Shown: positions 16,465-62,163, numbered from the stretch's first letter. The stretch: DNA of 64,000 nucleotides from a virus (IMGVR_UViG_2576861193_000004:1-64000), one strand, 5' to 3'. Numbers and translations are program-made. The notes: generated from the sequence alone by a model not told the origin.

Positions 16465-17562
16465 AAAATTTACACGAATAAGCTCTGTTGATAGACGATC
16501 TCCCTTAAATTTGTGGTCAATTTCGTCTAAATCCGGTTGCTCTACGATTGATGCGATGTACGTCGAGAAACTTTCTAAGGCGTCTCGCATCTCGTCCATA
16601 TAATCGTGCCGGTCGTAGACCCGATCTATCCCCTCAAGACTGTGGTTCATGATTTTACGTGATACCTCCTGGCTTATGCCTAATGCTGGGAAGTAACTAC
16701 GCGCAGTACGGCGCAAATCTCGGGGTGTAAATGGCTCAAGCTCCATCAGTTCTGGTCGTTCCAGAATACGACGTAATGCCTGGGCTATTGCCACTTTAGA
16801 CATAGGAAGGTCTTTCCCGATTTTTTTATTCGAAGGCACGAGCCACTGGCTGTCTTTACCATATTCGAACAACTCTTCAATACAAGTGCGCATTAATGAG
16901 CTTAAAGGCAGAGAATGCTCACGGGCAGATTTGTTCCTCTTGCCTTGATTCCAAACCCCACGCTTAAGATTGAACTCACTTTTTTTAGCCCGCAGTACTT
17001 CGTCAGGTCGTCTTGCGGATACAAGACATAGCCTGGCAGCCCATTTTGTACCAGCACACACATTGAAGTAGTCCCATATATTCCAGAACACCCATACCTC
17101 TGCGTCGGTCAGCTTCCGCTCGCGAGGTGTGGGCTTTGCGCCACCGGCAACTTTGTTAAGTGACATATCGTTTAACGGTGACACGTCTATCATCCCCTGG
17201 AAGGCGCACCAGCTAAGGAACTGCTTCATCAGAGAGAAAACGCGGCGGCCCATAACAATTTTGCCATCCAGTATTAGTGGGTTGACCAGTTGGTTCACCA
17301 TGAACCTATTAATGTCACTTACTTTTACATCGGCAATGTGCGGCAAAACATGTATCAAAATACAATGAACAGCGATCTCTGGCCGACGTCTGGTTATCAG
17401 CAGAGATAAGCGAGTGAATAACATGAATGCGTCCGAGAATCTCATGTCATTGCTAACCTGCGAGATCATAACGGCCTGCATTTGAGATGCTCTTTCGAGA
17501 TACTCTATCGCCTCTTTTGAGGTGTTCTCCGCAGCGCGTGCTCTGTCAAAGCTATTTTTCAT
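16459..17562 (-). CDS. int: tyrosine site-specific recombinase (phage integrase family)
   Basis: Catalytic-domain residues in order: ARRPDEV (Arg), PRDLRRTA, MNHS, RVYDRHDY (Tyr). Could be an integrase or a multimer-resolution recombinase. Confidence 0.8.
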   Translation of the reverse strand: MKNSFDRARAAENTSKEAIEYLERASQMQAVMISQVSNDMRFSDAFMLFTRLSLLITRRRPEIAVHCILIHVLPHIADVKVSDINRFMVNQLVNPLILDGKIVMGRRVFSLMKQFLSWCAFQGMIDVSPLNDMSLNKVAGGAKPTPRERKLTDAEVWVFWNIWDYFNVCAGTKWAARLCLVSARRPDEVLRAKKSEFNLKRGVWNQGKRNKSAREHSLPLSSLMRTCIEELFEYGKDSQWLVPSNKKIGKDLPMSKVAIAQALRRILERPELMELEPFTPRDLRRTARSYFPALGISQEVSRKIMNHSLEGIDRVYDRHDYMDEMRDALESFSTYIASIVEQPDLDEIDHKFKGDRLSTELIRVNFS

Positions 17563-17660: not shown

Positions 17661-17693
17661 AATGATTCCATACATAGTAGGTATGGAATCATT
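17661..17693. repeat. perfect 13-bp inverted repeat AATGATTCCATAC / GTATGGAATCATT with 7-bp spacer
   Basis: Read directly; the right arm recurs as single copies at 19434..19446 and 20446..20458. Confidence 0.8.
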
Positions 17694-17772
17694 TTGACGT
17701 TGTTTTTTGAATTTTAAGGGAAATGGGAGTGAGTTTGGTGGGAATAAAAACGGCTCCTGTGAGCCGTTAAAA

Positions 17773-18018
17773 TCAGAGGGTGCTGACGTATGCAGCCAGT
17801 TCTGTGTATCCGCCAATCGGCTGGCCATCGATCAGCACCTGGGGGATAGTCTCTACCGGTTTACCAACAATTTCACTTAGTTTTTCCTTGTCGATACCGG
17901 CAGTGGTGATGTCGATGTACTCATAATCACCGTAGCCATGTCCCTTTAGTTGCTTCGCCAGCTCGACCGCACGTTTGCAGTATGAGCAGTTATCTCGTCC
18001 GTAGATAGTGATCGTCAT
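17773..18018 (-). CDS. glutaredoxin-like protein (NrdH/GrxA type)
   Basis: 81 aa with CSYC active-site motif near the N-terminus and glutaredoxin-length fold. Confidence 0.8.
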   Translation of the reverse strand: MTITIYGRDNCSYCKRAVELAKQLKGHGYGDYEYIDITTAGIDKEKLSEIVGKPVETIPQVLIDGQPIGGYTELAAYVSTL

Positions 18019-18365
18019 TGCTTTGCCTCATGCCACTTTTGCTTCAGGAGATAGCCTTCCAGGGGCCAGATTTGATCGATAGCATCTTTTCGAGCGTACT
18101 CGCGACCAACATCAAAGTTGAAGATTTCTGGTCTTACGCACGCAGATTTTCCCGTTACGGTATATCCATTTTTGAGAACCATAACGCAGAACGTTAAGAG
18201 TTTTAACGACTCATGACCTTTGTCGATATCTGTTTTTGAATTGTAAACAGAGATGAAGTTATCCCCGTGGCTGGCATCATATGCAGTGAAATAATGTTCA
18301 CTTTGAATGAGTTGTTCAATGTGTTCAGGGGTGACTTTTAGTGGTGTGTTATCTTTGCTGGTCAT
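18015..18365 (-). CDS. hypothetical protein
   Basis: 116-aa ORF whose stop overlaps the glutaredoxin start by 4 nt (coupled); no motif. Confidence 0.45.
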   Translation of the reverse strand: MTSKDNTPLKVTPEHIEQLIQSEHYFTAYDASHGDNFISVYNSKTDIDKGHESLKLLTFCVMVLKNGYTVTGKSACVRPEIFNFDVGREYARKDAIDQIWPLEGYLLKQKWHEAKQ

Positions 18366-18406
18366 TATTTCTTCCTACAAAGTTCGTAGACTTGACTCTT
18401 TCAGTT

Positions 18407-18438
18407 GCAAAAAAGGGGCCGAAGCCCCTTTGAATTTT
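18407..18438. terminator. bidirectional hairpin terminator candidate
   Basis: aggggcc-ga-agcccct stem flanked by an A-run upstream and T-rich sequence downstream. Confidence 0.5.
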
Positions 18439-18586
18439 GCGCTGAAAAAAAGTGTTGCTAGGATGTTAGCAAGCTATGGTTAAGAACGTCTGCCGTAATT
18501 GTCTATCACAGCGTTGAGCGGTCTGGTTTATGTTAGCGGAGTCTTAATCTGGGTGATTAAAAGGCCAAACCGCTCAACGCTGTGTC

Positions 18587-18673
18587 TGGCGGAGAGTAAT
18601 GGAATCGAACCATCATCGCTTGCGCAATGGGACGGTTTTCAAGACCGCTTGAGCACCATGCTCCCTACTCTCC
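18587..18673 (-). tRNA. tRNA-Ser: tRNA-Ser (anticodon UGA), type II with long variable arm
   Basis: Manual fold of the reverse complement: 7-bp acceptor stem GGAGAGT/ACTCTCC, discriminator G, encoded CCA, T-loop TTCGATT, anticodon loop CTTGAAA. 87 nt. Confidence 0.8.
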
Positions 18674-18772
18674 AGCTATTGTGATGGTCGGTGCTGAACT
18701 CCGACACAGGGTTGTAGCAAGCCCCGCAAAGCGCGCACTACTGTAGTTGCGGCACATCAGCCTGTGCATTCA

Positions 18773-18862
18773 TCACAACGGTAAGATCACTACCTTTCGA
18801 CCAGTCATTGTGCACATGAACGACGATTAACCGTAATGATCTTATCGTTGTGTTGTGAAGCC
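18773..18862. repeat. long stem-loop 1 in tRNA spacer (arms CACAACGGTAAGATCA / TGATCTTATCGTTGTG)
   Basis: About 17-bp inverted arms with one mismatch, separated by about 50 nt; paralogous to stem-loop 2. Confidence 0.6.
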
Positions 18863-18900
18863 AGATGCTTATCTTCTGGTTGCTTCAAAGAGCTGCACTT

Positions 18901-18996
18901 CCTCACAACGGTAAGAGCACTGGTCTGACTCTATCGATTTACGGGCTTGTGGGTCAGTATCGCCGATTCGCCCAATGCTCTTACCTGTTGTGTTGG
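18901..18996. repeat. long stem-loop 2 in tRNA spacer (arms CACAACGGTAAGAGCA / TGCTCTTACCTGTTGTG)
   Basis: About 17-bp inverted arms separated by about 50 nt; right arm abuts the 3' end of tRNA-Thr. Confidence 0.6.
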
Positions 18997-19069
18997 TGCC
19001 GGTTAACGGGATCGAACCGCTGACATCCTGCTTACAAGGCAGGCGCTCTACCAACTGAGCTAAACCGGC
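18994..19069 (-). tRNA. tRNA-Thr: tRNA-Thr (anticodon UGU)
   Basis: Reverse complement GCCGGTTTAGCTCAGTTGGTAGAGCGCCTGCCTTGTAAGCAGG...GGTTCGATCC...AACCGGCACCA: D-stem GCTC/GAGC, anticodon stem CCTGC/GCAGG, loop CTTGTAA. 76 nt. Confidence 0.85.
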
Positions 19070-19073
19070 AATT

Positions 19074-19160
19074 TGGTGGGGAGTGATGGAGTCGAACCAC
19101 CCGAGTCGCAATGACAGTAGATTTACAGTCTACCCCGCTGCCCCTACGGACTAACTCCCC
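19074..19160 (-). tRNA. tRNA-Tyr: tRNA-Tyr (anticodon GUA), type II
   Basis: Acceptor GGGGAGT/ACTCCCC, anticodon arm GTAGA-CTGTAAA-TCTAC, long variable arm, T-loop TTCGACT, CCA encoded. 87 nt. Confidence 0.8.
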
Positions 19161-19165
19161 TAAAT

Positions 19166-19240
19166 TGGCGATGGTGGGTGGATTCGAACCACCGACCAGT
19201 TGGTTAACAGCCAACTGCTCTACCGCTGAGCTACACCATC
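19166..19240 (-). tRNA. tRNA-Asn: tRNA-Asn (anticodon GUU)
   Basis: Acceptor GATGGTG/CACCATC, D-arm GCTC-AGCGGTA-GAGC, anticodon arm GTTGG-CTGTTAA-CCAAC, T-arm GGTGG-TTCGAAT-CCACC, CCA encoded. 75 nt. Confidence 0.85.
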
Positions 19241-19506
19241 AATTCAGCACTGCCAGTATTTATTACTCAACAGTGCCAATCGCGACGGTTTAGTTTCTGC
19301 CAGGAAACGCACCGCTACTTGCACTTTTCGTTAGTGCCAGACGCTTTCGACTTCGCTCAATAGTAGAAGGCAAAATCTTTAAGTAGATGATGTTTCTGAG
19401 GACAGCACCTACTTTGTAATTTATACAATGTGATGTATGGAATCATTTGTTGTGAAAACAGGCACCAATGGCAACAGTGGTTAAACCTACACAACAATCC
19501 TGTCTT

Positions 19507-19628
19507 CACAACGTTGAGGCCACTACTCCGATTGAATGTTTGCCCAACATGTTACATATCAACGCTCGCCGGTATCTCTGTGAATAGAACCTTAGAATTG
19601 ATAAAAATGTAATGGCCTCAACGTTGTG
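19507..19628. repeat. perfect 15-bp inverted repeat CACAACGTTGAGGCC / GGCCTCAACGTTGTG separated by 92 bp
   Basis: Read directly (arms 19507..19521 and 19614..19628); shares the CACAACG core with the tRNA-spacer stem-loops. Confidence 0.7.
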
Positions 19629-19789
19629 TGCTGGCTAACCATACCAGCCGGGCTACGTCGCCGCTTTTTAACCCAGTATAAACGACATAATTGAACAAAA
19701 TGACGTAACAGGATGGGCGGTCAGTGGCTAAGAATCCGGGAGTCATATGGAGTTGAAAATATACCAACCGCCCATTCTGTTACTTCATC

Positions 19790-19813
19790 GGAGGGAACAT
19801 GAATGTTCCCTCC
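19790..19813. repeat. strong palindromic hairpin GGAGGGAACAT-ga-ATGTTCCCTCC
   Basis: 11-bp perfect arms read directly, in a 780-bp stretch without convincing ORFs. Confidence 0.7.
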
Positions 19814-20018
19814 TGCGTTCTGCAATCACACTCGCTCAGTGTGTCCCATTTCGGTAACGAGGCTGGAAACTGACCTCGCTGGTGTTTGGCTTATTAGGCT
19901 ACTGCCAGATAGACTTCTTCGTTTGCACTTGTATTTAAGTTCAAACAGTCGCGTCTCAACGAAAACAAAGTCATCTTATACATAAAAGATAAGTAAGTAA
20001 ATACTTATCACCATGTTT

Positions 20019-20309
20019 TTATTCGGTTGTGACTTTTTTGATCAAGGCCACTCTACGACTAGGTGTTCTTGTGATGGTGGCAGTGAATCGTTTCGCTTGG
20101 ATAGTAATGGTTTCGTTCTCCTTAAGTTGCCCGTAGCGAGTTTCCACCAGGGTGCCAAGACGCCACAGACCATCATCGATACGTTTATGACTGGCAAATT
20201 TAATCAGCAGCAGTTTTACGACTAACTGACCTACGTAAAAGGCGAATGCGACTCCGGCCGCTAAGAAATAGGTGGCCAACCACCAGTCCCAAGAAGTTAA
20301 ATTGCTCAT
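20019..20309 (-). CDS. hypothetical membrane protein
   Basis: 96 aa with N-terminal hydrophobic segment WWLATYFLAAGVAFAFYVGQLVV; AAGG Shine-Dalgarno before the ATG. Confidence 0.45.
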   Translation of the reverse strand: MSNLTSWDWWLATYFLAAGVAFAFYVGQLVVKLLLIKFASHKRIDDGLWRLGTLVETRYGQLKENETITIQAKRFTATITRTPSRRVALIKKVTTE

Positions 20310-20458
20310 TTTCTAACCTTTGTTTCATGAACTACCCGATACACACGCTTTCCGATGCACAGTGTTTTGGTTTTAAGTTCCTGCTTAATTAAATCACGAC
20401 AGATGCCGAAGCCGATAAGGAAGCCACCCATAAAAGCTAATGAGATGTATGGAATCAT
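20306..20458 (-). CDS. small hydrophobic protein (50 aa), not in the ORF track
   Basis: MIPYISLAFMGGFLIGFGICRDLIKQ...; its stop overlaps the ATG of the downstream gene; its start lies inside a copy of the GTATGGAATCATT motif. Confidence 0.25.
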   Translation of the reverse strand: MIPYISLAFMGGFLIGFGICRDLIKQELKTKTLCIGKRVYRVVHETKVRK

Positions 20459-20670
20459 TTTAACGCTCCTGATTCTACTAATTGCTGTAGCAATACTTTC
20501 CCTTTATCAGTTAACTGGTAGTTGGCCGAACACCACGTTTCAGAAACGTTTGCAACCAACCCTAACCGCTCTAACTTAGCTCGCGTTTTAGGCTTCCAGT
20601 ACTCAGGGAACTCCGGCCACTTACTTATTTCATGAAGCGTTTCTTTCTCCCGTTTACTTAATACGATCAT
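20455..20670 (-). CDS. hypothetical protein
   Basis: 71-aa ORF whose start overlaps the ligase stop by 4 nt (coupled). Confidence 0.45.
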   Translation of the reverse strand: MIVLSKREKETLHEISKWPEFPEYWKPKTRAKLERLGLVANVSETWCSANYQLTDKGKVLLQQLVESGALK

Positions 20671-25979: not shown

Positions 25980-26022
25980 GTGCTTTCCTTTGTTTTTTAA
26001 ACAAATTGTTTTCTAGTATTAG

Positions 26023-26772: not shown

Positions 26773-26879
26773 CTGGTAGGTAGTTACTTACTTATCACAA
26801 TGAGCGGATGATAGCGACTGGTGGCAGTTTTTGGAAGTGGAAACGGAAGGGAGTTGTTCTGGTGGTGTCTTTTAAAAGA

Positions 26880-26934
26880 CCTGCTTCCGTATATATTTAA
26901 TAAGTTACTTATTATTTATATATACAGAAGCAGG
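26880..26934. repeat. 55-bp imperfect palindrome, copy A (CCTGCTTCCGTATATATTTAATAAGTTACTTATTATTTATATATACAGAAGCAGG)
   Basis: Identical 55-mer also at 58829..58883; 17-bp arms with one asymmetric position around an AT-rich palindromic core AATAAGTTACTTATT; flanked by perfect palindrome GTCTTTTAAAAGAC. Confidence 0.9.
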
Positions 26935-27045
26935 CATAACTTGTCGTCTTAGACGCCCAGAAGCTCTACACTTTGAGCCTGTTAAATTGATTAAAAACTT
27001 ATGTGTAAAATAGAACGCATTAGTCAGTAGCAAAGAGATGCAATA

Positions 27046-27813
27046 ATGGACGATTTATCGGTATACGCGAGATCATTGGATAAGGCTAAATACTATGTTT
27101 ACTGTCTCTATGATACAGAAGACAAGATGAAAAGACCGTTTTACATAGGAAAAGGCAAATCGACTCGTTGTCTCGATCACATCAAGTATCCCGATGACTC
27201 TCCCAAATCCATGCGGATCAAAGAACTTTTGGCTAATAAAAAATTAGGCATAGATATACTTCGTCATGGTATGGATGAAACCACAGCCAAACTTGTTGAG
27301 GCGACATGCATCGACCTTATGGGGGTCGGAGAGCTTACGAATAAGGTACGAGGAAGTGGTTCCATGATGGGCAGAATATCACTGGACGCCTACCATCACT
27401 TAGTGCTGCAAGAGGAAACTGAAATTGCTCCTGAGCACGCCGGTCTTGCCTTCCTGCTAAACAGCACCTACAAGTCAGGAATGTCCGCTCTGGCATTATA
27501 TGAAGCTACGCGTGGCGTATGGGCAAAGGTTCCAAGAGACGAGAATCTCAAATATGCCTACGCTACATATGGTGGGCTGATAATGGAAGTTTATCAGATT
27601 GAATGCTGGGTCAAAGCCGGTTCTCAGCAGTACTTTACAAGGGATATAGCTCTTGGCCCCGACACAAAACGTTATGAATTTGTTGGCAGAATAGCCGATG
27701 AGCATATTAGAAAACTGTATGTAGGCAAATTAATCAAGAAGCCACCAAGCTACGGTAGCCCTTTTGTGAAGGTTGGGGTGGTTAGGACTGAACATAGTGT
27801 TAGCGCGGCATAA
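27046..27813 (+). CDS. GIY-YIG domain nuclease
   Basis: N-terminal YYVYCLYD...PFYIGKGKSTR (GIY-YIG core); 255 aa with uncharacterised C-terminal half. Confidence 0.7.
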   Translation: MDDLSVYARSLDKAKYYVYCLYDTEDKMKRPFYIGKGKSTRCLDHIKYPDDSPKSMRIKELLANKKLGIDILRHGMDETTAKLVEATCIDLMGVGELTNKVRGSGSMMGRISLDAYHHLVLQEETEIAPEHAGLAFLLNSTYKSGMSALALYEATRGVWAKVPRDENLKYAYATYGGLIMEVYQIECWVKAGSQQYFTRDIALGPDTKRYEFVGRIADEHIRKLYVGKLIKKPPSYGSPFVKVGVVRTEHSVSAA

Positions 27814-27829
27814 AGCTGACACTGTAGTT

Positions 27830-27867
27830 ATGCATTGGCGCAATGTACGCGCCAATGCATGATTTTT
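27830..27867. terminator. bidirectional terminator between convergent genes
   Basis: Perfect 12-bp inverted repeat ATGCATTGGCGC / GCGCCAATGCAT with 7-nt loop, followed by gattttt. Confidence 0.6.
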
Positions 27868-28225
27868 AACCTTTCTTCATCAACTCTCGTTTGATTTCAT
27901 CGGTACGCATCGTGACATCGGCAGCGGTGATCGCCTCATTCAATTTCACGATGTCCTCGATTTCCTGCGGTGACTTCTCTGCCAGATGGAAAATGGCTGC
28001 TCGAATCACGTCAGAACGAGTGAACTTCTCGAAGCGAGGGATGAACTTCATCATCTCCAGCAGTTCGAAGTATTCGTCCTCCAGTGACATTGTGCGGCTT
28101 TTAATTTTCTCTTTGCCACGAGTCGGGCGTCCCTGTGGTCTGACTGGTTGGCGCAAAGGAGTTGTGTTCTTAGCCGGTGCATCAGGCTCTTTGCGCTTTG
28201 CTAGGTCACCCATTTTCATGGACAT
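27866..28225 (-). CDS. small basic partner of ParA (ParG-like, putative centromere-binding protein)
   Basis: 119 aa, basic N-terminus; gene start abuts the parA stop. Role inferred from position. Confidence 0.4.
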   Translation of the reverse strand: MSMKMGDLAKRKEPDAPAKNTTPLRQPVRPQGRPTRGKEKIKSRTMSLEDEYFELLEMMKFIPRFEKFTRSDVIRAAIFHLAEKSPQEIEDIVKLNEAITAADVTMRTDEIKRELMKKG

Positions 28226-28893: not shown

Positions 28894-29211
28894 TGGAGAG
28901 TTCCCTTTGCGTATATAATTATCGTCTGAAACAACTTGTTTTCTTATATGTGATATAGCCTAAATGCCTACGGCTGCGGTGTAAAGGTTAAATGGTAGGT
29001 TGTGATTAACAATTGGCAATCATAGCTTGTATTTGTCTGTTGAAAAAAGTAACAATGACCTCTATATTACAAGTACGGTGATATGCCGTACACAATTTGA
29101 TAATGCACACGTAATGGGCTATAGCCTTTTAAAGTAATTTTTGAGTCGAAAACTCAGTTTGAACAGAGGAGATTGATGGCCTTCCTACATCACGGCCATC
29201 AGGAGGAATAC

Positions 29212-29481
29212 ATGTCAGCACTAAAAAAGCAGCGCATCGATTTGAGATTAACCGATGACGATAAAAGCATCATCGAGGAAGCTGCCGCAATGTCTAACCA
29301 GAGCATTACTCAGTTTATGGTTAGCAGTGCATCTGAACGTGCCGTGAAAGTTATAGAGCAACACCGTAGACTAGTTCTGAATGAAGAATCCTGGAATCTG
29401 GTTATGGACGCTATAAGCAATCCTCCGGCACCGAACGACAAGCTGAAACGAGCTGCTGATCGTCTGAAAAGCATGGAGTAG
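29212..29481 (+). CDS. DUF1778 (TacA/AtaR-family) antitoxin
   Basis: 90 aa MSALKKQRIDLRLTDDDKSIIEEAAA...NPPAPNDKLKRAA; AGGAGG Shine-Dalgarno 6 nt upstream of ATG 29212 (track start 29173 is TTG). Confidence 0.85.
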   Translation: MSALKKQRIDLRLTDDDKSIIEEAAAMSNQSITQFMVSSASERAVKVIEQHRRLVLNEESWNLVMDAISNPPAPNDKLKRAADRLKSME

Positions 29482-29488
29482 TTTACTC

Positions 29489-30010
29489 GTGAGCAATACA
29501 ACGATAGAGATTTTCTCTGGAGAGAAAGATTATGATCTAAACGGTTTTGATTGCGGCGAAGAGTCACTAAACGCCTTTTTAGCCAACCACTTAAAAAGGC
29601 AGCATGAGGGAAAAATTCTTCGTGCTTATGTGCTTTGCACTCAAGAAGAAAGGCCAAAAGTGTTAGGATATTACACTTTGTCAGGTAGTTGTTTTGAAAA
29701 GGAGTCCTTACCTTCAAGAAGCAAACAAAAGAAGGTTCCTTATCGGAATGTTCCAAGTGTTACTTTGGGTAGGCTGGCTTTGGACAAGTCCCTTCAAGGT
29801 CAAGGATTTGGCTCAATGCTTGTAACACATGCAATGCGCGTTGTGTACAATGCATCTCTTGCTGTAGGCATTCATGGACTTTTCGTTGAGGCGTTAAATG
29901 ACAAAGCCAAGGCGTTTTATAAAAGTTTAGGCTTTATCCAGCTGGTTGGTAACAACGAGCGTTCTTTGTTCTATCCTACAAAATCTATCGAAAAATTGTT
30001 CGAAGAATAA
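29489..30010 (+). CDS. GNAT-family acetyltransferase toxin (TacT/AtaT-like)
   Basis: 173 aa, GNAT motif A LQGQGFGSMLV; starts 8 nt after the antitoxin stop. Family members acetylate aminoacyl-tRNA. Confidence 0.85.
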   Translation: MSNTTIEIFSGEKDYDLNGFDCGEESLNAFLANHLKRQHEGKILRAYVLCTQEERPKVLGYYTLSGSCFEKESLPSRSKQKKVPYRNVPSVTLGRLALDKSLQGQGFGSMLVTHAMRVVYNASLAVGIHGLFVEALNDKAKAFYKSLGFIQLVGNNERSLFYPTKSIEKLFEE

Positions 30011-32176: not shown

Positions 32177-35100
32177 TATGCAAGCCTCACAATATAGTTA
32201 AATGCGATGTTTTTGACGGTGTTTTCCGCGTTACCAGCAGCGTTAACGGTGATGGTGTGTCCATGTGAGCCAATCGCAACCGAGTGCGTATGCGCACCAA
32301 TACCTACAGTATGTGCATGTGCGCCAGAACTTGCTGCAGTACCAGACAGCGAGTGGGTATGAGCACCTGCTGACTGTGTCTGAATACGTTGATAATACGA
32401 TCTACTGGAAGAAGTCCCCGGGCTTACTTGATACTGTGAATCCTGGACATAAGTGAACCCACCGCCATCATAAAATGCTAACGCAGAACCGCCGCCTCCT
32501 GGCCAACGAATACCATTACCATGAGTATGAGCACCGGCAGCCCCCGTAGAGCCACTCAGACTGTGCGTATGCGCCCCGGTGTTATTCGTGGATTTAGTGC
32601 CGTAATCAAACGACGATGTGGTTTTCGTCCCCAAATCCGTACTGGATGCGCTGGCGCTGTGGGTGTGCGATTTAATGCCGTCCTGTTCCTGAGACAATAC
32701 GGCGCGACCACTGGCAGGTTTGCCCTTAATCGTCCAGCCACGCATATCAGGGATCACGCCTGACGGATAAGCGGCTGCAAGTTTCGGGTAAGCAGATTTG
32801 TCAAAAGTCTGCCCCTGCATCAGGGCATAGCCAGACGGAACGGTATCTGATGGCCACGGGATTGGTGCACCGACTGGATAAAACTCTGCAGGAGGATGAG
32901 CCGAGGTGTAAAGCTGCGCCCACGGCGACCAGTTTGCGTCGGTCGTATCCCGTCGTGAACGAATAAATGCCGGAGCATGAGCACCGCTTGTACCACTCCA
33001 GCCAATTAGCAACTCTCCCTCACCAGCAACTCTCGCACCTTTCATGTGCAATACGTTGCCATACGTGGTCGGGTAGCTATTGTTGTACGCCTCGTACATT
33101 TGAATGCCAGCAGTGCCTTGAGTAGAGCCGCTTAACGCCGTAACTTGGCCACGAGATACCAATGTATTAATGTTGATATCGCCTGAGCCATCAAACTTAA
33201 CACCATTGATGTTTCTCGCTGTTTGCAACTTCGTAGCTGTTGAAGCATTACCGTTCAAACTACCATTTACGCCACCAGTCACATTTAGTCCATTACCGAT
33301 CGTAACAGCACCATTGGCATTGTTAATGATAAGCGGCCTTAAACTATTCCATGATCCAAGATTGTCACCCGAGGCGGTCAACATGAAGTATGTGTTTGAA
33401 CCATCGTTTCGGATAAAGAATCCGTAGTTTCCGCAGACAATGCGCAGACCATTCGCCGATTTTGAAATGATCTCACCAGAAGATGTCAAACCTCCAGATA
33501 ATGTACCACCGGTAAGAGGTAATGCACCGACATCAGAGGCTGTTGGTTTGTTTTTCGTGTTATATACTCTTCGCCATCCTGGAGAATAATCTGTGCCATT
33601 AAATACATAGATAAACTCCGCATTAGTGAGAGCACCAGAGACACTCGTCGTTGTGGCCGTTGTTATACGGATCGTATAATTGTTTGAGCTACTACCGTTA
33701 TTAAATACCTCTATAACAGCTCCTGCCAATGGAATAACGCCACAACCAGTTTCACTATTTGGTATGGTTGCACTATTGGCATAGGCCCACGCACATCGAG
33801 CAATCCATGACCTTGTGGTAAACGCGCCGTTATTTTGCAATAACGTCACTAACTGTGCTGTTGTTATTGCTCCGCCATTACTTCCTGTAGTTAACCAACC
33901 AGTAGGAGATGCCGGGCAACCTATATCGGCAGGCCCCAACGATATATTTCTTGTGCCATCAAACGCAATACCGTTGATGGTTCTTGCGGTTTGCAACTTC
34001 GTAGCAGTAGCCGCGTTGCCCGTTGTATTCTGATTACCAGTCGTATTAACACCTGGCAAATTAATATTCGCAGTACCATCAAAGCTCACGCCGCCGATAG
34101 TTCTTGCCGTCTGAAGTTTTGTAGCAGTTGCAGCATTACCAGTGGTGTTCTGATTACCCGTAGTATTTACACCTGGAAGGTTGATATTTGCAGAACCGTC
34201 GAAACCAACTCCACCGATAGATCTTGCCGTCTGCAATTTCGTTGCTGTACTTGCATTACCATTTAATGTTCCGGTGATCCCACCAGTAACAGACAACGGA
34301 CCTGAAACTGTTCCTCCGGTTGTTGGCAGTGCACCAATATCTAACGGCGTCGGTTTCTTATGTGTGCTATACATCGTATAAACAACACCATCGGTAACGC
34401 TGGAAGGCTTACTCGCTGAATATGTTGGCGATGTATAAATAGAAACTGTCGCATTTGCAGTACAATCCCAATGGATATTTACACTAGTCGCATAATTGCC
34501 AATCTCAACGTAAATATCATATGTATCGCCGGATGTGTTGATCCAGGCGAAATTCGTTAATCCGACGGCTGTACGCTTCCACAAAGCCCCGGTAATTCCT
34601 TTGGGCATTCCATTGCCTGCTCGTAGAACCAGTTCTGAAATGCCTGCCTGTTGAGGTGACCCCACGTTAAATCCCGCGCCACCAATCAATGCGATGTAAA
34701 CGATGGAACTATTTTGTGGCATGGTAACCGTAGCCAGTTTGAACCACCCAGCCCCGCCAGAGAAAGACATCGTTATTGAATTTAAAGTACCAATATCTTT
34801 CGGCGTTAATGTGATATCCGCAGTCAGTGCTTTCCCGTTAATTTTTCGGTTAGATGGCACCCTGCTGTTCGCATTGTCATTGACTACTTTAACTGCTTTT
34901 GGCGTTGCGGCCAGCGATTCACTGGTGCTGTCGACAGCACTGCTAAGTTTCACAACACCTTTAGTTGTAAGGCTTGCGTCTTCCATCGCAACTGCACCGG
35001 CAATCTCTTCAGCACGATCAGCAGCAGCTTCCGCACGGGTCGCAGCGGATTCAGCAGCAGTTTTGCTCTGAGATGCTGCCGTCGCACTGCCAGCTGCCTC

Positions 35101-55221: not shown

Positions 55222-56796
55222 TCACTCGTTCTCTTGAGTAGATGAGTCCCCATTCCCTCGGGGTTGATCTTGCCCGCTTTCTTGGGCCGCACCACGATCA
55301 TAAGTAAGTACTGACTTATTTTCAAGGGTATTTAGATCATTTTTTGGAGGAAAATTCAAGAGATCTTTATCAAATTCCTTTTTCATCGCCTCAGTAATGT
55401 TCGGGAAAATCTTCTCAATAAGCATTTCCATCTGGTGACGACGTACAGAGTCCGGTGCCTGAAGTAATGACAGTTTCTCGGCAACAGAAAATTCATCAGT
55501 AAGGCCACGAATATCGAAACTTTCTGGATACGCAATTAAAGAGTGGTCTTCGTCCAGATCTACCCCCATCCATTTCGCAACCAGTAGCATGATTTGGCGT
55601 TCAGCCCTTTCCAGACGCTCTGCTTTTGTGACAAGCAAGCTATTTACACGCTGGAAGTCATACATTTTTGCGGCACCAGATGAATTATCGATTCCCTGTG
55701 CGTTGTCCTGCTTCGTTCGCTCACCAGCTACACCAACTGAATGGTAGATTTCGTTAATCACCGTCTTAATCGTAGTGATGATCATCTGAGCTTGTTTCGG
55801 GTCTGGTGACAGATAAAACGGCTGGTTTCCACCTTCAGAATCGTAGGTGAAGACTCGCTTTGTGCCCATTTCAAGCACTTTAGTGTGGTTTTCATCACCA
55901 GGTAAAAGCGACTGTACCGGTATAGCCAACTGGCTAAATGTCTGATCCTGAATAATGGCATCAAGGTTTGACAGATAGTTTGCAACCGCACGATCAAGAT
56001 AAGCAATATCATCGATCAACGATGGGCTGAAATACGGTGATTCACTTTCTCCAATACAATCAACAGGAAACACAGGAACTACGCCGAGATTATGCGCGCC
56101 GCTGTCCTCTAAAATAACTTTTGCCTGACGACGACCTGCTCCACCAGCCCCCTTCTTCACTTCCTCACGGAACAGATACCACTCGTTTTGTGTCCACAGA
56201 CGATAACGTTGGTATTCCTGACCTGTAGAAGTAAAAGGATCTGCGTCATCGCGAGCGACTTCCACAATTAACGCCCATAACATATTCCCGTCGTCGTCCC
56301 ATGCCACATCCAGCATTTGCTGAGGTGAAATCCAGTAGGCGTAGGCGCGAGCATCTTTCTTTTTCTCGTCAGCTACTGACTCAACATCACCACTCATCGT
56401 GCTATCGACAACAACCCATATGCGACCGTAAATAGACGACTGCAAATCAATAGCGGCCATAAATGAGTCAATAGAGGCATTCTGGCGAGTCGCACGTTTC
56501 CAGAAATTGCGGATCTGCTCTGGTGCCTCTTCGATATTTCTATGAATGTCTTCTTTAAAGAGATATTTGTTGATGAGGTTTACCACCTCACGAGTGTGGT
56601 TGAAGCGATAAGCACGCTCAACTCGCTCCTTAAACTCCTGATCTCCCTCTTTAAAGTAACGAAAGATATTGTCTGTAAACCAACCACGCCCGCCAGCGTA
56701 AGTGCTGGCGAGGAAGTCCCAATGTTCTTTTTTCTTTTCGTATTCCGGGTGGCGTCGCGCCACCAGATCCTTAATTTGTTTGTCGTTCAATTCCAT
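55222..56796 (-). CDS. portal protein
   Basis: 524 aa immediately downstream of the large terminase gene; acidic C-terminus. Confidence 0.7.
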   Translation of the reverse strand: MELNDKQIKDLVARRHPEYEKKKEHWDFLASTYAGGRGWFTDNIFRYFKEGDQEFKERVERAYRFNHTREVVNLINKYLFKEDIHRNIEEAPEQIRNFWKRATRQNASIDSFMAAIDLQSSIYGRIWVVVDSTMSGDVESVADEKKKDARAYAYWISPQQMLDVAWDDDGNMLWALIVEVARDDADPFTSTGQEYQRYRLWTQNEWYLFREEVKKGAGGAGRRQAKVILEDSGAHNLGVVPVFPVDCIGESESPYFSPSLIDDIAYLDRAVANYLSNLDAIIQDQTFSQLAIPVQSLLPGDENHTKVLEMGTKRVFTYDSEGGNQPFYLSPDPKQAQMIITTIKTVINEIYHSVGVAGERTKQDNAQGIDNSSGAAKMYDFQRVNSLLVTKAERLERAERQIMLLVAKWMGVDLDEDHSLIAYPESFDIRGLTDEFSVAEKLSLLQAPDSVRRHQMEMLIEKIFPNITEAMKKEFDKDLLNFPPKNDLNTLENKSVLTYDRGAAQESGQDQPRGNGDSSTQENE

Positions 56797-56822: not shown

Positions 56823-58079
56823 CTATCTAGAACCACCAAGAATAACACGGTTTTTGACTGGATACCTACGATGTACTGGATAGCCCAATGCGTCTGCACT
56901 ATGCTCAATGCCACCTGTCTTATCCATATCTCGTGTTCCAGGCTTGTAGATGACTTTTTCCAATGAATCAATCAAATGCTTGCACTTCGGATCGATATAC
57001 AGCCGGATATCTCCAGATGCGGTCATCAGCATTCGGTTAACAGCATTAACACGATCCGCAATTGGCGGGTGCTTTTTCGAATAATCGACACGTAAGAATC
57101 CCTTCTCTTTGAATATGTCGACGTCAGACTCCCCGCGAGCATGTTGGCGATAAGCACCTGCCGGATCTGGAAATACCGTTATCTGTGATTTCCAGCGCCA
57201 GAAGCGTCTCTCAAGCTCATCACAAACCTCTGCCGTGTTAGAGGAAAAGAGCACCAATTCATCAATTGCCCATAGCTCACCATTTGGCTGAGGTTGCAAA
57301 ATTACTGAAGACATCGGGTCAATGTTGAAGTCCTGCCCTACCCATATAGGCAACCGAGGGTTGAACTGAAGCGGTTTTACATGCACGTTACGATCGAACG
57401 GGTAGTAAACGCGCCCGGACATGTTCTCAAAGCTCGCCAGGTACTCCTGAGCGAACGATTTCGGGTCCATATCGTTCTTAGCAGCTTCAATTTCCGCCGT
57501 AGGCACAAACGGAGAATCGGCAGTTACAAACTGCCAGCTCTTCCACTGTCCCTTTCTTTGCAGCTCTACGTTCTGGCCTATAGTCCACAGTTTGTGAAAT
57601 TCCGAGAAGCCTTTTGGCGTACCAATGATCAGTGCACCGCCGCGTGTCGATGAAAGAGTAGGTCGTAACACCTTGTACCAGGTGTCAGCCTTCATATCCT
57701 GAAATTCATCAAGCACTACAAAATGCAACGCTACGCCGCGCAGAGTGTCAGGCTTATCAGCACCTTTGAGGGCGATCTCCGAACCGTTCTTCAACACGAT
57801 TGTCATCGTGGTGTCGTTCTTTTTCCTAACCCACTTACGAGGCAGAACTTCCTGTAGATCGTCCCACAAAATCTGGCGAGCCATCTGGTAAGTAGGAGCG
57901 ACATACCAGACCCTTTGCTTTTTTTCCTTTGCCGCCGCACGAATAATAGTGGAGATCGACAACCGGGATTTTCCCCAGCGTCGACCAGCACAAACAACTT
58001 TAAATCGATGCGGAGACTGGAAGACTTTCATCTGTCCAGAATGCAGTTGCACAAGACTGAGCGAGGACGGGATTGCCAT
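56823..58079 (-). CDS. terL: terminase large subunit
   Basis: Walker A VCAGRRWGKS, Walker B VVLDEFQ, C-terminal nuclease-like region with conserved acidic residues; 418 aa. Confidence 0.9.
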   Translation of the reverse strand: MAIPSSLSLVQLHSGQMKVFQSPHRFKVVCAGRRWGKSRLSISTIIRAAAKEKKQRVWYVAPTYQMARQILWDDLQEVLPRKWVRKKNDTTMTIVLKNGSEIALKGADKPDTLRGVALHFVVLDEFQDMKADTWYKVLRPTLSSTRGGALIIGTPKGFSEFHKLWTIGQNVELQRKGQWKSWQFVTADSPFVPTAEIEAAKNDMDPKSFAQEYLASFENMSGRVYYPFDRNVHVKPLQFNPRLPIWVGQDFNIDPMSSVILQPQPNGELWAIDELVLFSSNTAEVCDELERRFWRWKSQITVFPDPAGAYRQHARGESDVDIFKEKGFLRVDYSKKHPPIADRVNAVNRMLMTASGDIRLYIDPKCKHLIDSLEKVIYKPGTRDMDKTGGIEHSADALGYPVHRRYPVKNRVILGGSR

Positions 58080-58711
58080 TATTCGTCCTCCCCTTCACTT
58101 CCATCATCTGTCGCATCAAATTCGCTTAGAGCTTCTTCTTCCAACGTCTCAAGCAATTCGTCATCGATGATTTCAGGCTCGTCGTCTTCCTGACGTAATT
58201 TCGCCACCTGGGAAGGCGTAAGCTCACCAAATACCAGGTTCGGAATTTCTTCCTCGTCATTTTCCGCATGATCCATGCCCAATGCTTTGGACGAAACTTC
58301 AAAGCATTTTGCAAGGGTATTACTGGCTCTCTGTAAGCTCTTGAGAGAATCCTCAATCGCCCCTAAAGGCCTACCCTCACGTTTGGCCGTAGTGACTTCG
58401 ACCATCACCATCTGCCCCAACGCATACGCCCAGCCGTCATAACGTGTACGACGTTCTTCTATCTTTTCCGCACGGGCTTTAGCGCGAAGCTCTGCGTCAG
58501 ATTTAAGAGACTCACGAACCATCTTCCCAACAGAGTCCGCGCCTTTCTCTAATCCTCGCTTTTTGAAATGTCTGGAGAGTGTTTCACGACGAATGCCGTA
58601 CTCTTCCTCCAGCTTTGAGAGTGTATATTCGCCTGACGTCCATTTGGCTTCAGCTTCGGCCCACTCCGCTGGTGTCAGGCGAGTTTTTACCTCGTCTTTT
58701 TCGACCGTCAT
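58079..58711 (-). CDS. terS: terminase small subunit (putative)
   Basis: 210 aa, N-terminal HTH-like region and very acidic C-terminus; stop overlaps the terL start. Confidence 0.6.
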   Translation of the reverse strand: MTVEKDEVKTRLTPAEWAEAEAKWTSGEYTLSKLEEEYGIRRETLSRHFKKRGLEKGADSVGKMVRESLKSDAELRAKARAEKIEERRTRYDGWAYALGQMVMVEVTTAKREGRPLGAIEDSLKSLQRASNTLAKCFEVSSKALGMDHAENDEEEIPNLVFGELTPSQVAKLRQEDDEPEIIDDELLETLEEEALSEFDATDDGSEGEDE

Positions 58712-58828
58712 AGATCCCTCTAAAACACACAGAGCGCGTCCATGCGCTCTAAAACAACTTGTTTACTGCATCTGCTAACCAACTTGTTTTCTGGGGTGTT
58801 TAATTAGGTCTGGGCATGTCTTATTAAG

Positions 58829-58883
58829 CCTGCTTCCGTATATATTTAATAAGTTACTTATTATTTATATATACAGAAGCAGG
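58829..58883. repeat. 55-bp imperfect palindrome, copy B (identical to 26880..26934)
   Basis: Exact 55/55 match on the same strand; nested inside a larger inverted repeat (GGTCTGGG ... CCCAGACC); 118..172 nt upstream of the terS start. Confidence 0.9.
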
Positions 58884-58907
58884 TCTTTAAATAAGCTCCC
58901 AGACCGA

Positions 58908-59174
58908 TTACATCACCAGTAACTTCGCTTTGGCTCGACCTAAAGTGGTTAACCCAAGAGTTCGGCGGTGATAGCGATTGTCACTGCGTTGGCGCGTATG
59001 CCCTTTCTCCACCAGCCCCTTTTTTATCAGAGCGCGAATTGAGAACTGGATACTTTGCTTGGTTGTCTTGTACGGCAAAACTTCAAGCAATTCGTCCAGA
59101 TCAAGTAAATGACCTCGCTCATAACCGAGATTGAGCGTTTTGATGATGTCCTTTTGTTTATCGGTTAACGTCAT
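58908..59174 (-). CDS. winged-helix DNA-binding protein
   Basis: 88 aa with segment KQSIQFSIRALIKKGLVEK; AAGGA Shine-Dalgarno overlapping the upstream stop (coupled). Confidence 0.5.
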   Translation of the reverse strand: MTLTDKQKDIIKTLNLGYERGHLLDLDELLEVLPYKTTKQSIQFSIRALIKKGLVEKGHTRQRSDNRYHRRTLGLTTLGRAKAKLLVM

Positions 59175-59183: not shown

Positions 59184-60074
59184 TTATGCCGGTAAAGCAA
59201 TTTCTAACGGTTTATCCAAAGGTTGTTTGTCGAATGCCAGCAGTGGCAGCGTGTCAGGCAGTCGACGACCAAAGTCAGGGTTTCGGTACACACCATACAA
59301 CGGAGACGTAAAGCTCAGGTTGTGAATGTCCTTGAGCAGCTTCACAATGCTGGCCTCGTCCACCAGACTGTCGGCAATGTCCTGAATCGTCGTGCCACGA
59401 TTCCGCCCAGCTTTTGCCAGGGAACTGTTCTTGTGGTAGTCCGCCACCAGATCACGCAGTGCACGGCGACGACGAGACTCGCTCATTGCGAACAACTCTT
59501 TGACGATCGCCTCGTTATCACCAGGGTCGGAACGGAAATGGCGCTGGAATACACGCAGTGCACTTTCATAGCTCTTCGGTCGCTCAGGGCGGATGAACTT
59601 AAACCCTGCTTTCATGGCGAAGGGATTGTATTTGCTCATCGAGGACTGGATCTCAATGATTGGCCGGTCATGCATCCTGCTAACCAGGTTAATCATTCGA
59701 TAAGAGACGCCTACGCCACGATACTGAGTATCCACAACTGAGCGACTGATCACCGCAAAGTTGTTATTCACGTACCGACCCCAGTACTGGTTAGCCACGG
59801 TGGTATTAGTGGTTGGTTTCAACTTAGGAAACATGCGGTGGCGAGGTGCCAGCAGTAGTTTCGGGTAAGCCATAACCACGACGCCCACCAGACGGTCATC
59901 AAGTTCGCAGCGATAGTAAGTTGGCGCGAAAGGTTTGCCGTCTGTTTTGTAGTGAAGCGACTTAAGAGCGTGCCAGTCCTCTACAGTTCCCTTTGTGACA
60001 GTCATTCGCTCCAGAAAGTCCAGATGACGCGGAAACTCTTCAGGGCGGTAGCGTTTAATGATGATGTCCGTCAT
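59184..60074 (-). CDS. GNAT-fold acetyltransferase domain protein with C-terminal extension
   Basis: GNAT motif A-like VVDTQYRGVGVSYRMINLV and YNPFAMKAGFKF; 296 aa; start overlaps the ABC ATPase stop by 4 nt. Confidence 0.6.
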   Translation of the reverse strand: MTDIIIKRYRPEEFPRHLDFLERMTVTKGTVEDWHALKSLHYKTDGKPFAPTYYRCELDDRLVGVVVMAYPKLLLAPRHRMFPKLKPTTNTTVANQYWGRYVNNNFAVISRSVVDTQYRGVGVSYRMINLVSRMHDRPIIEIQSSMSKYNPFAMKAGFKFIRPERPKSYESALRVFQRHFRSDPGDNEAIVKELFAMSESRRRRALRDLVADYHKNSSLAKAGRNRGTTIQDIADSLVDEASIVKLLKDIHNLSFTSPLYGVYRNPDFGRRLPDTLPLLAFDKQPLDKPLEIALPA

Positions 60075-60736
60075 AAATGAACCTCATCATGACTACCATT
60101 GTGATATTCCACCTTCACGCGTTCTTTGTAGTGCTTGGTGATCTGCATATCCGGGCGCAGCGCGTTCTTCAGGTCTTCGTGAGTCGTCGCCACCATTACC
60201 GTCGCACCAACCTTTCGAGCGGCACGCTGGAGGTTAGATGCCACAACCTGAGCGGTTACACGGTCTAGAACAGCACCGAACTCGTCAGCAGCCCACACTT
60301 TAGCGCCTGACTCAATCAGTTTGGCAATCTTGAGACGATATTTCTGACCGTCTGACATTTCAGAAGGCTTGCGAACAAACAGATATGCATCGTTCAGACC
60401 AGCCATAGATAACAACCCAAGCGCATCGCTGGTCGTTTTGCCCAACTGATCGATGACGTTAACCTCATTATCGAAGGTAAAATCATCGATGGAGGCTACA
60501 GACAGCCCTTCATCCTTCATCTGTCGTTGCAACTCGCGCAGCACAACGGATTTGCCGGAACCGGATTGGCCGGTGATGTACACCACATCGCCCTGCTTCA
60601 CTTCCAGCTCCAGATTGTCGTAAAGCGTCCACTCTTTTTCGTCCAGGCCAAGCCCGAACGACTCAGCGATTTCCAACGTGCGCGTGGTTTTATTTACGCG
60701 TGTCTGAAACGATACGTTGATGATGTATTTGCTCAT
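60071..60736 (-). CDS. single-cassette ABC-type ATPase (no transmembrane partner)
   Basis: Walker A GQSGSGKS, signature-like MSDGQKYRLKIAKL, Walker B VWAADEF, H-loop ATTHED; 221 aa. Confidence 0.75.
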   Translation of the reverse strand: MSKYIINVSFQTRVNKTTRTLEIAESFGLGLDEKEWTLYDNLELEVKQGDVVYITGQSGSGKSVVLRELQRQMKDEGLSVASIDDFTFDNEVNVIDQLGKTTSDALGLLSMAGLNDAYLFVRKPSEMSDGQKYRLKIAKLIESGAKVWAADEFGAVLDRVTAQVVASNLQRAARKVGATVMVATTHEDLKNALRPDMQITKHYKERVKVEYHNGSHDEVHL

Positions 60737-61401
60737 GCAGCCATCTCCCCGGAAGAGATCTTCTCCGCATATGCCACAAATGCGTCTACACCGCTTTCTC
60801 CCGTCATTTCTTCCATATGGGCAAGCAAATCACCAACAACAATGGCAGAGCCAGCAGGGAGCGTTTTAAAGCCCAATACGTCGACAACACGTACTTCTTC
60901 CGCTGCAACTTCATGACTGATCTCGGTGTGTTCATCCTTCTGTCGTTTAGTTTCTTCGCCAAGATCGATAACTAGCGAGTCGGTGTCCATTTCTTCTGTC
61001 ATGCTGCCAACGAGAACATTCAACTCACGCTCTTCAAAGCCGAAAACCTCGATATCGTCCAGAACAAGCGACTCAAGCTCTTTCTGTAGCTTAATTGCAT
61101 CGTAATCAATGCTGGCAAGTCGGTTATCTTCAAGACGCTTCGCACGAACCTCGTCATCACTGAGATCATCGCGAACAATAACCGGTACGCGCTCAAGTCC
61201 AGCAAAAATTGCAGCCTCACGGCGGCCGTGGCCAGTAATAATTACGTCGTTCTTATCGACCGTAATTGGCTGGTCAAATCCGCGCTTTTTAATGGCTGCG
61301 GCCAGATCTCGGATCTGCTGTTCATCATGCTTTTTGGCATTCATCTCATAGGGAATAAGATCTGCCGGGTCGCGATATACGATTTCAAACTTTTTGGTCA
61401 T
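60733..61401 (-). CDS. ParB/Srx-fold N-terminal domain protein (ParB-like nuclease domain) 1
   Basis: Pattern LIPYEMNAKKHDEQQIRDLAAAIKKRGFDQPITVDKNDVIITGHGRREAAIFAGLERVPV; start ATG overlaps the upstream stop (TAATG). Confidence 0.75.
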   Translation of the reverse strand: MTKKFEIVYRDPADLIPYEMNAKKHDEQQIRDLAAAIKKRGFDQPITVDKNDVIITGHGRREAAIFAGLERVPVIVRDDLSDDEVRAKRLEDNRLASIDYDAIKLQKELESLVLDDIEVFGFEERELNVLVGSMTEEMDTDSLVIDLGEETKRQKDEHTEISHEVAAEEVRVVDVLGFKTLPAGSAIVVGDLLAHMEEMTGESGVDAFVAYAEKISSGEMAA

Positions 61402-62081
61402 TACATACGCTCCTTGTAGTAGTCGACCAGCCACACCAGAGCCTCACCAGCGTTTTCCATTTCATTGCCAGTATTAATTGCCTGGTCTTTGATGATGTTT
61501 TTTATGGTTTCTGCAACGCGATCTGACGCATCGAAAGTTACTTTGAAGCGCATGGTCTGATGTTCCGCACCGACACGTTCGGTTTTCTCTCGTTTGTCGG
61601 TATCGACAGGCTCATCACTACCACGAGACAACGCCTCCAGTGCTTCAAGGTCGATTGCCGCCTCTTTTGCTAAAACCATCGAGATTTCGTCGTCATACGG
61701 GGCGATTTCAGACAGTTGATAGTCAAGTTCTGACTGAATTTCTTCAATGAAGCGCTGCAATGCGATTTGGTCGTCTTCACCGTATCGCTCGTTGTCCACC
61801 AGTGACATCTGTTTAGCTACGACATCGCTAATTTTGCCCACAGAAAGCACCGGAACCGTTGAAATTCCTTGCTCAATAGCAGCACGCCAGCGATGTTCGC
61901 CGCCGAGGATTTCAAAAAATCCATCTTCAAGTTCACGAGCCAAAATTGGCTTAAAAAAGCCCAATTTTTCGATAGAACCTTTCAGTTTTTCAAAATTCTG
62001 CGCACCAACCGAATTGGTGTTCCAGGTATTCGGGCGAAGGTTGGCAACATCAACCTGCAAAATCGTGATTTTTACATCCAT
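61401..62081 (-). CDS. ParB/Srx-fold N-terminal domain protein (ParB-like nuclease domain) 2
   Basis: Pattern LRPNTWNTN...KLKGSIEKLGFFKPILAREL..GFFEILGGEHRWRAAIEQGISTVPV; start set to ATG 62081 (track start 62099 is GTG). Confidence 0.7.
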   Translation of the reverse strand: MDVKITILQVDVANLRPNTWNTNSVGAQNFEKLKGSIEKLGFFKPILARELEDGFFEILGGEHRWRAAIEQGISTVPVLSVGKISDVVAKQMSLVDNERYGEDDQIALQRFIEEIQSELDYQLSEIAPYDDEISMVLAKEAAIDLEALEALSRGSDEPVDTDKREKTERVGAEHQTMRFKVTFDASDRVAETIKNIIKDQAINTGNEMENAGEALVWLVDYYKERM

Positions 62082-62163
62082 TTTATTGCTACAATCCACT
62101 ATGTAATCACTTACTTATTATAATAGCCAAATAACATACAAAAGGCACTAAGGAAAGAGGTTT

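Follow-up and report, generated by a model that had tools for sequence, protein, structure and literature searches.

A nested palindrome with a paralogous core upstream of terS as a possible RNA-level operon-boundary hairpin in an SSU5-type phage-plasmid

Overall organization of the terS upstream region

The window, which denotes the whole analysed stretch of 64,000 nucleotides of viral DNA (IMGVR_UViG_2576861193_000004:1-64000), harbors a 99-bp composite palindrome in the gap upstream of the small terminase gene terS. We tentatively interpret this composite, built around a 55-bp core termed copy B, as an RNA-level hairpin that marks an operon boundary or controls late genes, and not as a genome end (probability roughly 0.45). 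Copy B looks like a twin, devoid of a U-tract, of the terminator-type hairpin formed by a second core, copy A. SSU5-type phage-plasmids are common, and relatives carry CTX-M-15 according to the literature. Their lytic replication and packaging genes are silenced in the plasmid state and later switched on. Located at the entries to both the replication operon and the packaging/structural operon, the two-copy hairpin therefore provides a concrete, mutable handle on the lytic switch.

Judged by its megablast relatives, the window is an SSU5-type phage-plasmid. The terS region is 99% identical to Escherichia phage CMS-2020a and ~80–98% identical to PhiR41_1, Cyrano (pLF82), Salmonella phage SSU5 and Klebsiella relatives, and the part alignable to SSU5 shows 85% identity. 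The minus strand carries all genes around the composite palindrome. In the direction of transcription, these are two ParB-like genes (61401-62099 and 60733-61434), an ABC-type ATPase gene (60071-60736), the gene of a 296-aa protein (59184-60074) and an 88-aa winged-helix gene (58908-59174, stop codon at 58908-58910), followed by terS (58079-58711, 210 aa), terL (56823-58079, with a Terminase_6N match) and the portal gene (55222-56796). The 210-aa gene is called terS because it overlaps the start of terL; the PHROG label of its product reads DNA-binding domain only. The 88-aa protein is predicted to be a minimal MarR-like winged helix (pLDDT 82), with a Foldseek TM-score of ~0.75 to MarR/MepR. 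Both genes that the earlier note had placed on either side of the palindrome, the winged-helix gene and terS, are borne out by these assignments. They are separated by 196 nt, and the composite occupies this sole sizeable intergenic gap between the ParB/ABC/winged-helix genes and the terS-terL-portal genes on the same strand.

The composite palindrome around copy B

The composite is separated by 2 nt from the winged-helix stop codon and by 95 nt from the terS ATG. It is composed of outer arms, middle arms and the core, all assigned to the minus strand. On the plus strand, the outer arms read GGTCTGGG (58807-58814) and CCCAGACC (58898-58905), which form the 3' and 5' outer arms of the sense transcript, respectively. 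The middle arms CTTATT (58820-58825) and AATAAG (58890-58895) pair with each other and flank copy B (58829-58883), an imperfect palindrome. The core contains a 10-bp GC-rich stem base, which reads CCUGCUUCYG/CRGAAGCAGG in both copies, a (TA)n stem and an apical ATAAGT-N-ACTTAT palindrome. The palindrome of about 100 bp that had been claimed at copy B is real, with its arms located and its fold far beyond that of shuffled sequences; the arms are as described, and the positions first given for them (58805 and 58895) are off by 2–3 nt.

Folded as DNA, the composite reaches -25.3 kcal/mol (z -7.6), and none of 200 shuffles is as good. As sense-strand RNA it reaches -50.6 kcal/mol (z -10.2), again with no shuffle as good. 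The predicted RNA stem comprises ~40 pairs with small internal loops, and part of it is backed by covariation. It includes the feature of RNase III sites, at least ~20 bp of near-continuous double-stranded RNA. A search of Rfam 15 returned no match at gathering score, only sub-threshold generic long hairpins such as miRNA precursors.

The outer arms of copy B are intact in the E. coli and Klebsiella lineages and carry one mismatch in the SSU5 group. They are partly compensated in three contigs (L054, L056 and L078) and broken in another (L050). Because they are kept in most related lineages, their conservation at the sequence level marks them as no chance match. The middle arms are found in the E. 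coli lineage, and the spacer is unconserved in the Klebsiella and SSU5 lineages.

Two copies of the core and their conservation

The window contains a single further copy of the core, copy A (26880-26934, minus strand), which is 100% identical to copy B where 0 copies are expected by chance. The identity between A and B in the window is limited to the core. Copy A is located upstream of the replication operon, which encodes a 249-aa protein, a DnaB-like helicase, a primase and a ligase. It is followed by the U-tract TCTTTTAAAA (sense; 26870-26879, minus strand), and the core and this tract together constitute an intrinsic-terminator signature. In contrast, copy B has no U-tract on either strand in the window and is not called by the terminator scan; it has the outer and middle arms where copy A has the U-tract. 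This dichotomy holds among the relatives: a TCTTTT(T/A) or TTTTT-type start lies directly after the copy A stem in ~57 of 62 distinct contexts, whereas a T4 run follows the copy B stem in none of 37.

Copy A also possesses weaker outer arms, TTCTGG on the plus strand (CCAGAA in the sense direction; 26857-26862) pairing with plus-strand CCAGAA (26957-26962), both assigned to the minus strand, so nesting is not unique to copy B. In the SSU5 and Klebsiella lineages, these arms read GTCTGG and CCAGAC. As weak outer arms flank copy A in many lineages, the whole composite looks, from sequence comparison, like an ancestral duplicated unit. A generic test of outer-arm pairing around copy A gave results no better than shuffled controls. 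As sense RNA, the copy A composite folds with -42.5 kcal/mol (z -6.4).

Conservation was assessed in 78 related terS-upstream loci from IMG/VR and GTDB (the GTDB scan with TerS contributing 4 loci only) and, for copy A, in 80 loci upstream of the 249-aa gene. Of these loci, 77 yielded copy B, in 19 core variants, and 75 yielded copy A, in 27 core variants. Both cores sit just 3' of a sense-strand gene, with 150–175 nt from the core start and ~95–125 nt from the core end to the ATG of the next operon. The orientation of the core relative to the downstream gene is constant, except in a few contigs with a flipped copy A core. In addition, 259 of 5,426 complete E. coli genomes carry the terS region, always on plasmids, with a median of two core places per plasmid.

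The copy B core differs at 3–4 of 55 positions among the E. coli, Salmonella/Yersinia/Kluyvera and Klebsiella lineages. It is 93–95% identical between genera, in surroundings of ~80% identity and with adjoining spacers that are barely alignable. The terS-proximal half, ACTTATTAAATATATACGGAAGCAGG, is almost invariant. In the other half, pairs are broken by some of the changes, such as CTGCATC and CTGCGTC. This base-by-base conservation of the core exceeds what pairing alone would demand and suggests a partner that may bind in a sequence-specific manner.

The DNA on the 5' (sense) side of copy A consists of hypervariable cargo; the relatives have at least 12 unrelated sequences there, and the homology between them stops at the distal edge of copy A. 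In most of them, a minus-strand gene ends ~20 nt before copy A. This cargo hot spot (26935-28225; loci L096-L175) holds in the window a plus-strand gene for a LEM-3-like GIY-YIG nuclease (27046-27813). In a few contigs (L136, L101, L105), copy A has its asymmetric centre in the opposite orientation to that of copy B, and A and B are identical in five contigs as well as in the window. Taken at the sequence level, the flipped centres and the identical copies imply that part of the palindrome has inverted and that gene conversion has acted on A and B.

Pairing, covariation and strand signature

With RNAalifold, both the outer stem and the core stem are recovered, along with two extra covarying pairs at the base of the core. 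One of the extra pairs (columns 28/91) is AU in 9 sequences and GC in 8, and the second is AU in 15 sequences and GU in 9. Columns 39/80 run through CG, UG and UA, and position 5 of copy A through C-G, T.G and T-A, so that the series C-G, U.G, U-A is seen at two stem positions. Moreover, the outer stem shows GC to AU and UA to AU changes.

The non-Watson–Crick cells of the copy B composite comprise 28 G.U versus 6 A.C when read on the sense strand, and 96.4% of the cells are paired on the sense strand versus 92.8% on the antisense strand. The corresponding count in the core stem of copy A is 29 G.U versus 2. Counted by independent columns, the bias in copy B amounts to 6 versus 4 only. This strand bias is suggestive of a sense-strand RNA; it could also reflect a C-to-T mutation bias.

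Transcription across both copies in the relative Cyrano

Per-gene RNA-seq values for Cyrano are available from the LF82 study (PMC9928086, S1 table). The genes before copy A show values of 49.8 (parA), 89.1 (relE/parE) and 54.6 (CYRAN_30), compared with 6.2 for CYRAN_31, the 249-aa gene after copy A, at a background median of 9.8 (PMC9928086). In other conditions, the log2 values are 8.6–10.4 before copy A versus 2.3–4.2 after it (PMC9928086). The transcript level thus drops ~9-fold or more across copy A. The Cyrano gap holding copy A is 193 nt long, and the hairpin in it is followed by TCTTTTAAAG. Given the RNA-seq drop and the hairpin with its U-tract at this place, lysogenic transcription of the cargo and partition genes stops in the copy A gap, as an intrinsic terminator would do. 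A pair of a TacA-like antitoxin and a GNAT (TacT-like) toxin is encoded at 29173-30010 of the window, and its Cyrano counterparts are highly expressed in lysogens.

The genes around copy B are near background in Cyrano lysogens (PMC9928086). Two conditions show signal, with log2 values of 5.5–6.6 for the winged-helix gene, 3.7–5.6 for terS and 3.2–4.1 for terL, and of 2.9–3.7 for the upstream neighbour of the winged-helix gene (PMC9928086). The upper parts of these ranges, 6.5–6.6 for the winged-helix gene, 4.9–5.6 for terS and 4.1 for terL, likewise show a partial decrease. The drop from the winged-helix gene to terS across copy B is ~2–3 fold, hence partial at most, and concerns near-background lysogen levels. 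In the same study, the winged-helix gene CYRAN_123 exceeds the gene upstream of it, CYRAN_122, by a factor of 6–8 in two conditions (PMC9928086). This excess suggests a promoter of its own or selective stabilization by the 3' hairpin B.

The segment between copy B and terS

Two 13-bp palindromes of the form AAACAAnTTGKTT (58752-58764 and 58777-58789, minus strand) are located between copy B and terS. The same palindrome precedes the DnaB-like helicase gene (25999-26011) and parA (28929-28941), and the Klebsiella relatives have one copy only before terS. By its sequence and distribution, it resembles an operator recognised by a global regulator, for which the two ParB-like genes upstream of terS suggest a KorB/ParB-like protein as a candidate.

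Just before the terS ribosome-binding site (RBS), a GC-rich hairpin (58730-58751, minus strand) is followed by UGUGUGUUUU (58720-58729, minus strand). This terminator-like element, as judged by the scan, ends 9 nt before the RBS. An alternative predicted fold of the terS leader covers the RBS, and a direct repeat of UUUUAGAG in the leader (58712-58765, minus strand) permits such an RBS-sequestering fold. These modelled folds suggest that the leader may control the late operon by attenuation or antitermination. A scan for sigma-70-like promoters in the gap between copy B and terS found none; therefore, terS is probably reached by transcription through copy B and controlled by the downstream signals.

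Proposed role of copy B and comparison with known systems

We infer that copy B acts as RNA, and the fate of this RNA, along the following lines. Copy A with its U-tract would serve as an intrinsic terminator that shields the lytic replication genes from the constitutive transcription of the cargo and partition genes. Copy B would have lost the U-tract or never had it, and its two added stems would extend it into an imperfect RNA duplex of ~40 bp. This duplex would form in the mRNA from the ParB-ABC-winged-helix genes and may pause or partly stop the RNA polymerase, be cut by an RNase III-type enzyme, or both. The upstream message would thereby gain a protective 3' hairpin and become uncoupled from terS, whose expression would then be set by the operator-like palindromes and by the GC-rich hairpin with its U-run before the RBS.

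Nothing here is a new kind of system. Copy A is like the intrinsic terminators that close phage moron or cargo cassettes: it has a GC-rich hairpin with a U-tract, in the sense orientation, 3' of expressed cargo and with a transcript drop. Compared with such terminators, the stem is unusually long (~25 bp, with an AT-rich upper part) and conserved in sequence, and copy B is without a U-tract. At lambda tI/sib, an inner hairpin lies within outer arms that pair only after read-through, giving an RNase III duplex 3' of a regulatory gene. Copy B likewise has nested arms that could pair only upon read-through, in principle into a long duplex that would suit RNase III, and lies just 3' of a regulatory gene. 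In contrast to sib, there are two copies per genome, the sequences are not similar, and both RNase III cleavage and antiterminated read-through are putative here. The intergenic RNase III sites of T7, about ten in number and with a defined internal loop, are also paralogous imperfect hairpins between genes on the transcribed strand, whereas here two hairpins of another shape are found and the role of RNase III is a prediction.

Counterparts in distant relatives

The gene order of ParB, ATPase, a protein of ~290 aa, a winged-helix protein of ~85 aa, a gap, terS, terL and portal is shared by Rhizobium phage B1VFA, Pseudomonas phage nickie and Stenotrophomonas phage BUCTxx99. The small winged-helix protein and TerS have recognisable orthologues in distant relatives, those of the winged-helix protein being at the same position in B1VFA and BUCTxx99. 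In the B1VFA gap, 10-bp GC outer arms 104 nt apart are accompanied by 20-nt arms and an AT-rich centre with TAAGTAATT/AATTACTTA; a search for a second copy of the B1VFA palindrome found none. The BUCTxx99 gap contains 8-bp GC outer arms 108 nt apart and an inner hairpin followed by GGGTTTTTG. The nickie gap has a different palindrome, ACAAGTTGTTAA (L177, 2013-2052), and a clear hairpin with a T-run just before terS, analogous to the GC-rich hairpin of the terS leader in the window. Of the three distant relatives, B1VFA and BUCTxx99 thus have a nested, GC-armed inverted repeat in the orthologous gap, with differing sequences.

A joint reading would make copy B either an early/late gate in ~110-kb siphoviruses and phage-plasmids (SSU5-like, Rhizobium B1VFA-like and Stenotrophomonas BUCTxx99-like) or the recognition site of this terminase family, and we consider it unlikely. 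As a gate, an RNA hairpin or DNA cruciform would be recognised by a phage factor, for example the syntenic MarR-like protein, and entry into terS-terL-portal would be decided either by retroregulation of the sib type through RNase III or by antitermination at the terminator next to terS.

Copy B and the question of packaging

The earlier note had proposed a packaging or late-control site next to terS. The late-control half is plausible, given the position in the gap, the conservation and the twin copy A with its transcript drop. The packaging half is unsupported, given the break of the SSU5 record at a repeat boundary, the terminal repeat of B1VFA and the second copy. The same note had argued that a second copy speaks against a unique packaging site, and this argument stands: cos and pac are single sites per genome, and the window and its relatives carry two core copies, the second being kept 32 kb away.

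As a packaging site, copy B would be recognised and cut by the terminase, at a cos or a terminal-repeat boundary, while copy A, lacking the B flanks, would be skipped; we hold this to be quite improbable. The element is located 95–203 nt upstream of terS, as lambda-like cos sites are, its terS-proximal half is nearly invariant, and direct repeats lie between the core and terS. In addition, the linear SSU5 record (JQ965645.1 / NC_018843.1) begins and ends inside the core of copy B (...ACTTATTA/AATATATACGG), ending with ...ACTTATTA and starting with AATATATACGGAAGCAGG, and the Cyrano record starts 1 nt from the SSU5 start. However, copies A and B of SSU5 are identical at 35 of 37 nt from CCTGCTTC to ...ACTTATTA and diverge exactly at the record cut, so that the break coincides with the end of the stretch shared by A and B. 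The joined SSU5 ends rebuild the commonest B sequence with no base missing or duplicated and without gain or loss of an overhang, a junction pattern not expected from polished cohesive ends. The SSU5 and Cyrano starts were therefore rejected as cos ends. On this sequence evidence, the start of the SSU5 record points to an assembler break at a repeat boundary, and it would be wrong to read coordinate 1 of the SSU5 reference as a physical end that had been mapped. The Cyrano record re-annotates a plasmid and was probably aligned to SSU5; its authors compared it with SSU5 and reported no termini analysis. None of the ~78 related contigs ends inside copy B, but the majority derive from plasmid-state assemblies.

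The terminase also argues against this reading. TerL is of the Terminase_6N type and not of a cos-associated type. Its closest relatives outside the group (54–57% identity) belong to ~110-kb siphoviruses of Rhizobium, Pseudomonas, Stenotrophomonas and Xanthomonas, and T5-like phages are among the more distant ones (~25% identity). Among the TerL relatives in the phage collection, B1VFA (54% identity) is the closest with a termini report that we found; PhageTerm indicated that its ends are fixed and carry a direct terminal repeat of 3,605 bp (3.6 kb) and are not cos ends. Our literature search found no report of termini, cos or headful packaging for the SSU5 group. Copy B resembles a lambda-type cos (cosQ-cosN-cosB) in its location upstream of terS, its partial dyad symmetry and the repeats towards terS. 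It differs in its palindrome of 55–99 bp, which greatly exceeds cosN in size, and in its second copy. In addition, the sole evidence for an end is a break of the assembly type, and the closest TerL relative that we found with reported termini uses terminal repeats.

Several related candidates were rejected. Ends of IMG/VR contigs are no proxy for physical ends, since short-read assemblies break at identical 55-bp repeats, as happened at copy A in L098 and L111. The idea that A and B delimit a terminal repeat was discarded: with 31,949 bp between them, the resulting 140-kb chromosome would be too large, presumably misfitting a ~76 nm head by rough volume scaling. A protelomerase (telRL-like) site, suggested by the 55-bp size, was dismissed as the plasmid records are deposited as circular; no protelomerase was found among the scanned proteins of the window.

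DNA-level alternatives

Copies A and B might instead act as DNA, as protein-binding sites, perhaps forming a cruciform at the AT-rich centre, through which a phage regulator switches the late and replication operons jointly. We regard this as doubtful, though it accounts for several observations. The core is more conserved than the neighbouring DNA, particularly in its almost invariant terS-proximal half; the apical ATAAGT-N-ACTTAT is present in both A and B, the related TAAGTAATT/AATTACTTA is central in the Rhizobium element, and two copies before two operons suit a shared regulator. Candidate binders are the adjacent MarR-like protein, a predicted dimeric DNA binder encoded immediately upstream and syntenic in distant relatives, or a factor recognising genome-wide TAAGT..ACTTA palindromes. 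The motif TAAGT-N(0-14)-ACTTA occurs 10 times in the window versus 0.57 expected, mostly in short gaps between co-directional genes. However, the ATAAGT and ACTTAT half-sites of the core are 1 nt apart, too close for a standard MarR-type dimer, which fits N4-spaced sites better. Likewise, MarR-family operators resemble the palindrome in adjoining a MarR-fold gene, but the palindrome lies downstream of that gene and not in its promoter, and the 1-nt spacing is atypical. Moreover, a pure DNA site leaves the copy A U-tract, the transcript drop and the covariation of the non-conserved flanking pairs unexplained. N4-spaced TAAGT/ACTTA versions occur elsewhere in the window. The TAAGT-N(0-14)-ACTTA sites include those at 13375, 19990, 23343, 36393, 49810 and 55301 and those in the cores at 26901 and 58850, and they are often located 16–100 nt before a start codon.

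A role in DNA metabolism, as a hairpin for single-strand initiation or priming or as a recombination hotspot at module boundaries, is highly improbable in our view. It would fit the location of copy A exactly at the junction between hypervariable cargo and conserved backbone, where homology ends at its distal edge with at least 12 unrelated sequences on the 5' side, and abutting the helicase-primase operon. Identical A and B in some genomes (gene conversion) and a flipped A in a few are also in line with it, and the G.T bias would suit a single-stranded DNA hairpin as well. Nevertheless, a terminator that closes a moron-like cassette would account for the cargo boundary equally well, no GC-skew switch occurs at A or B, and iteron-like repeats together with a tyrosine recombinase gene are found elsewhere, at 16.5–20.5 kb. 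Recombinase sites in direct repeat would lead to the loss of 32 kb, and ~75 contigs showed neither inversion nor deletion polymorphism; on these grounds, the copies were also rejected as sites of the tyrosine recombinase (16459-17562). The recombinase gene adjoins families of 20–23-bp direct and inverted repeats (D6, D8, I13 and I14; 17673-20460), which probably represent a plasmid iteron, partition or resolution region. Inside a 1390-aa tail-region gene, there are three diverged direct repeats of 120 nt (family D1, 33176-34183).
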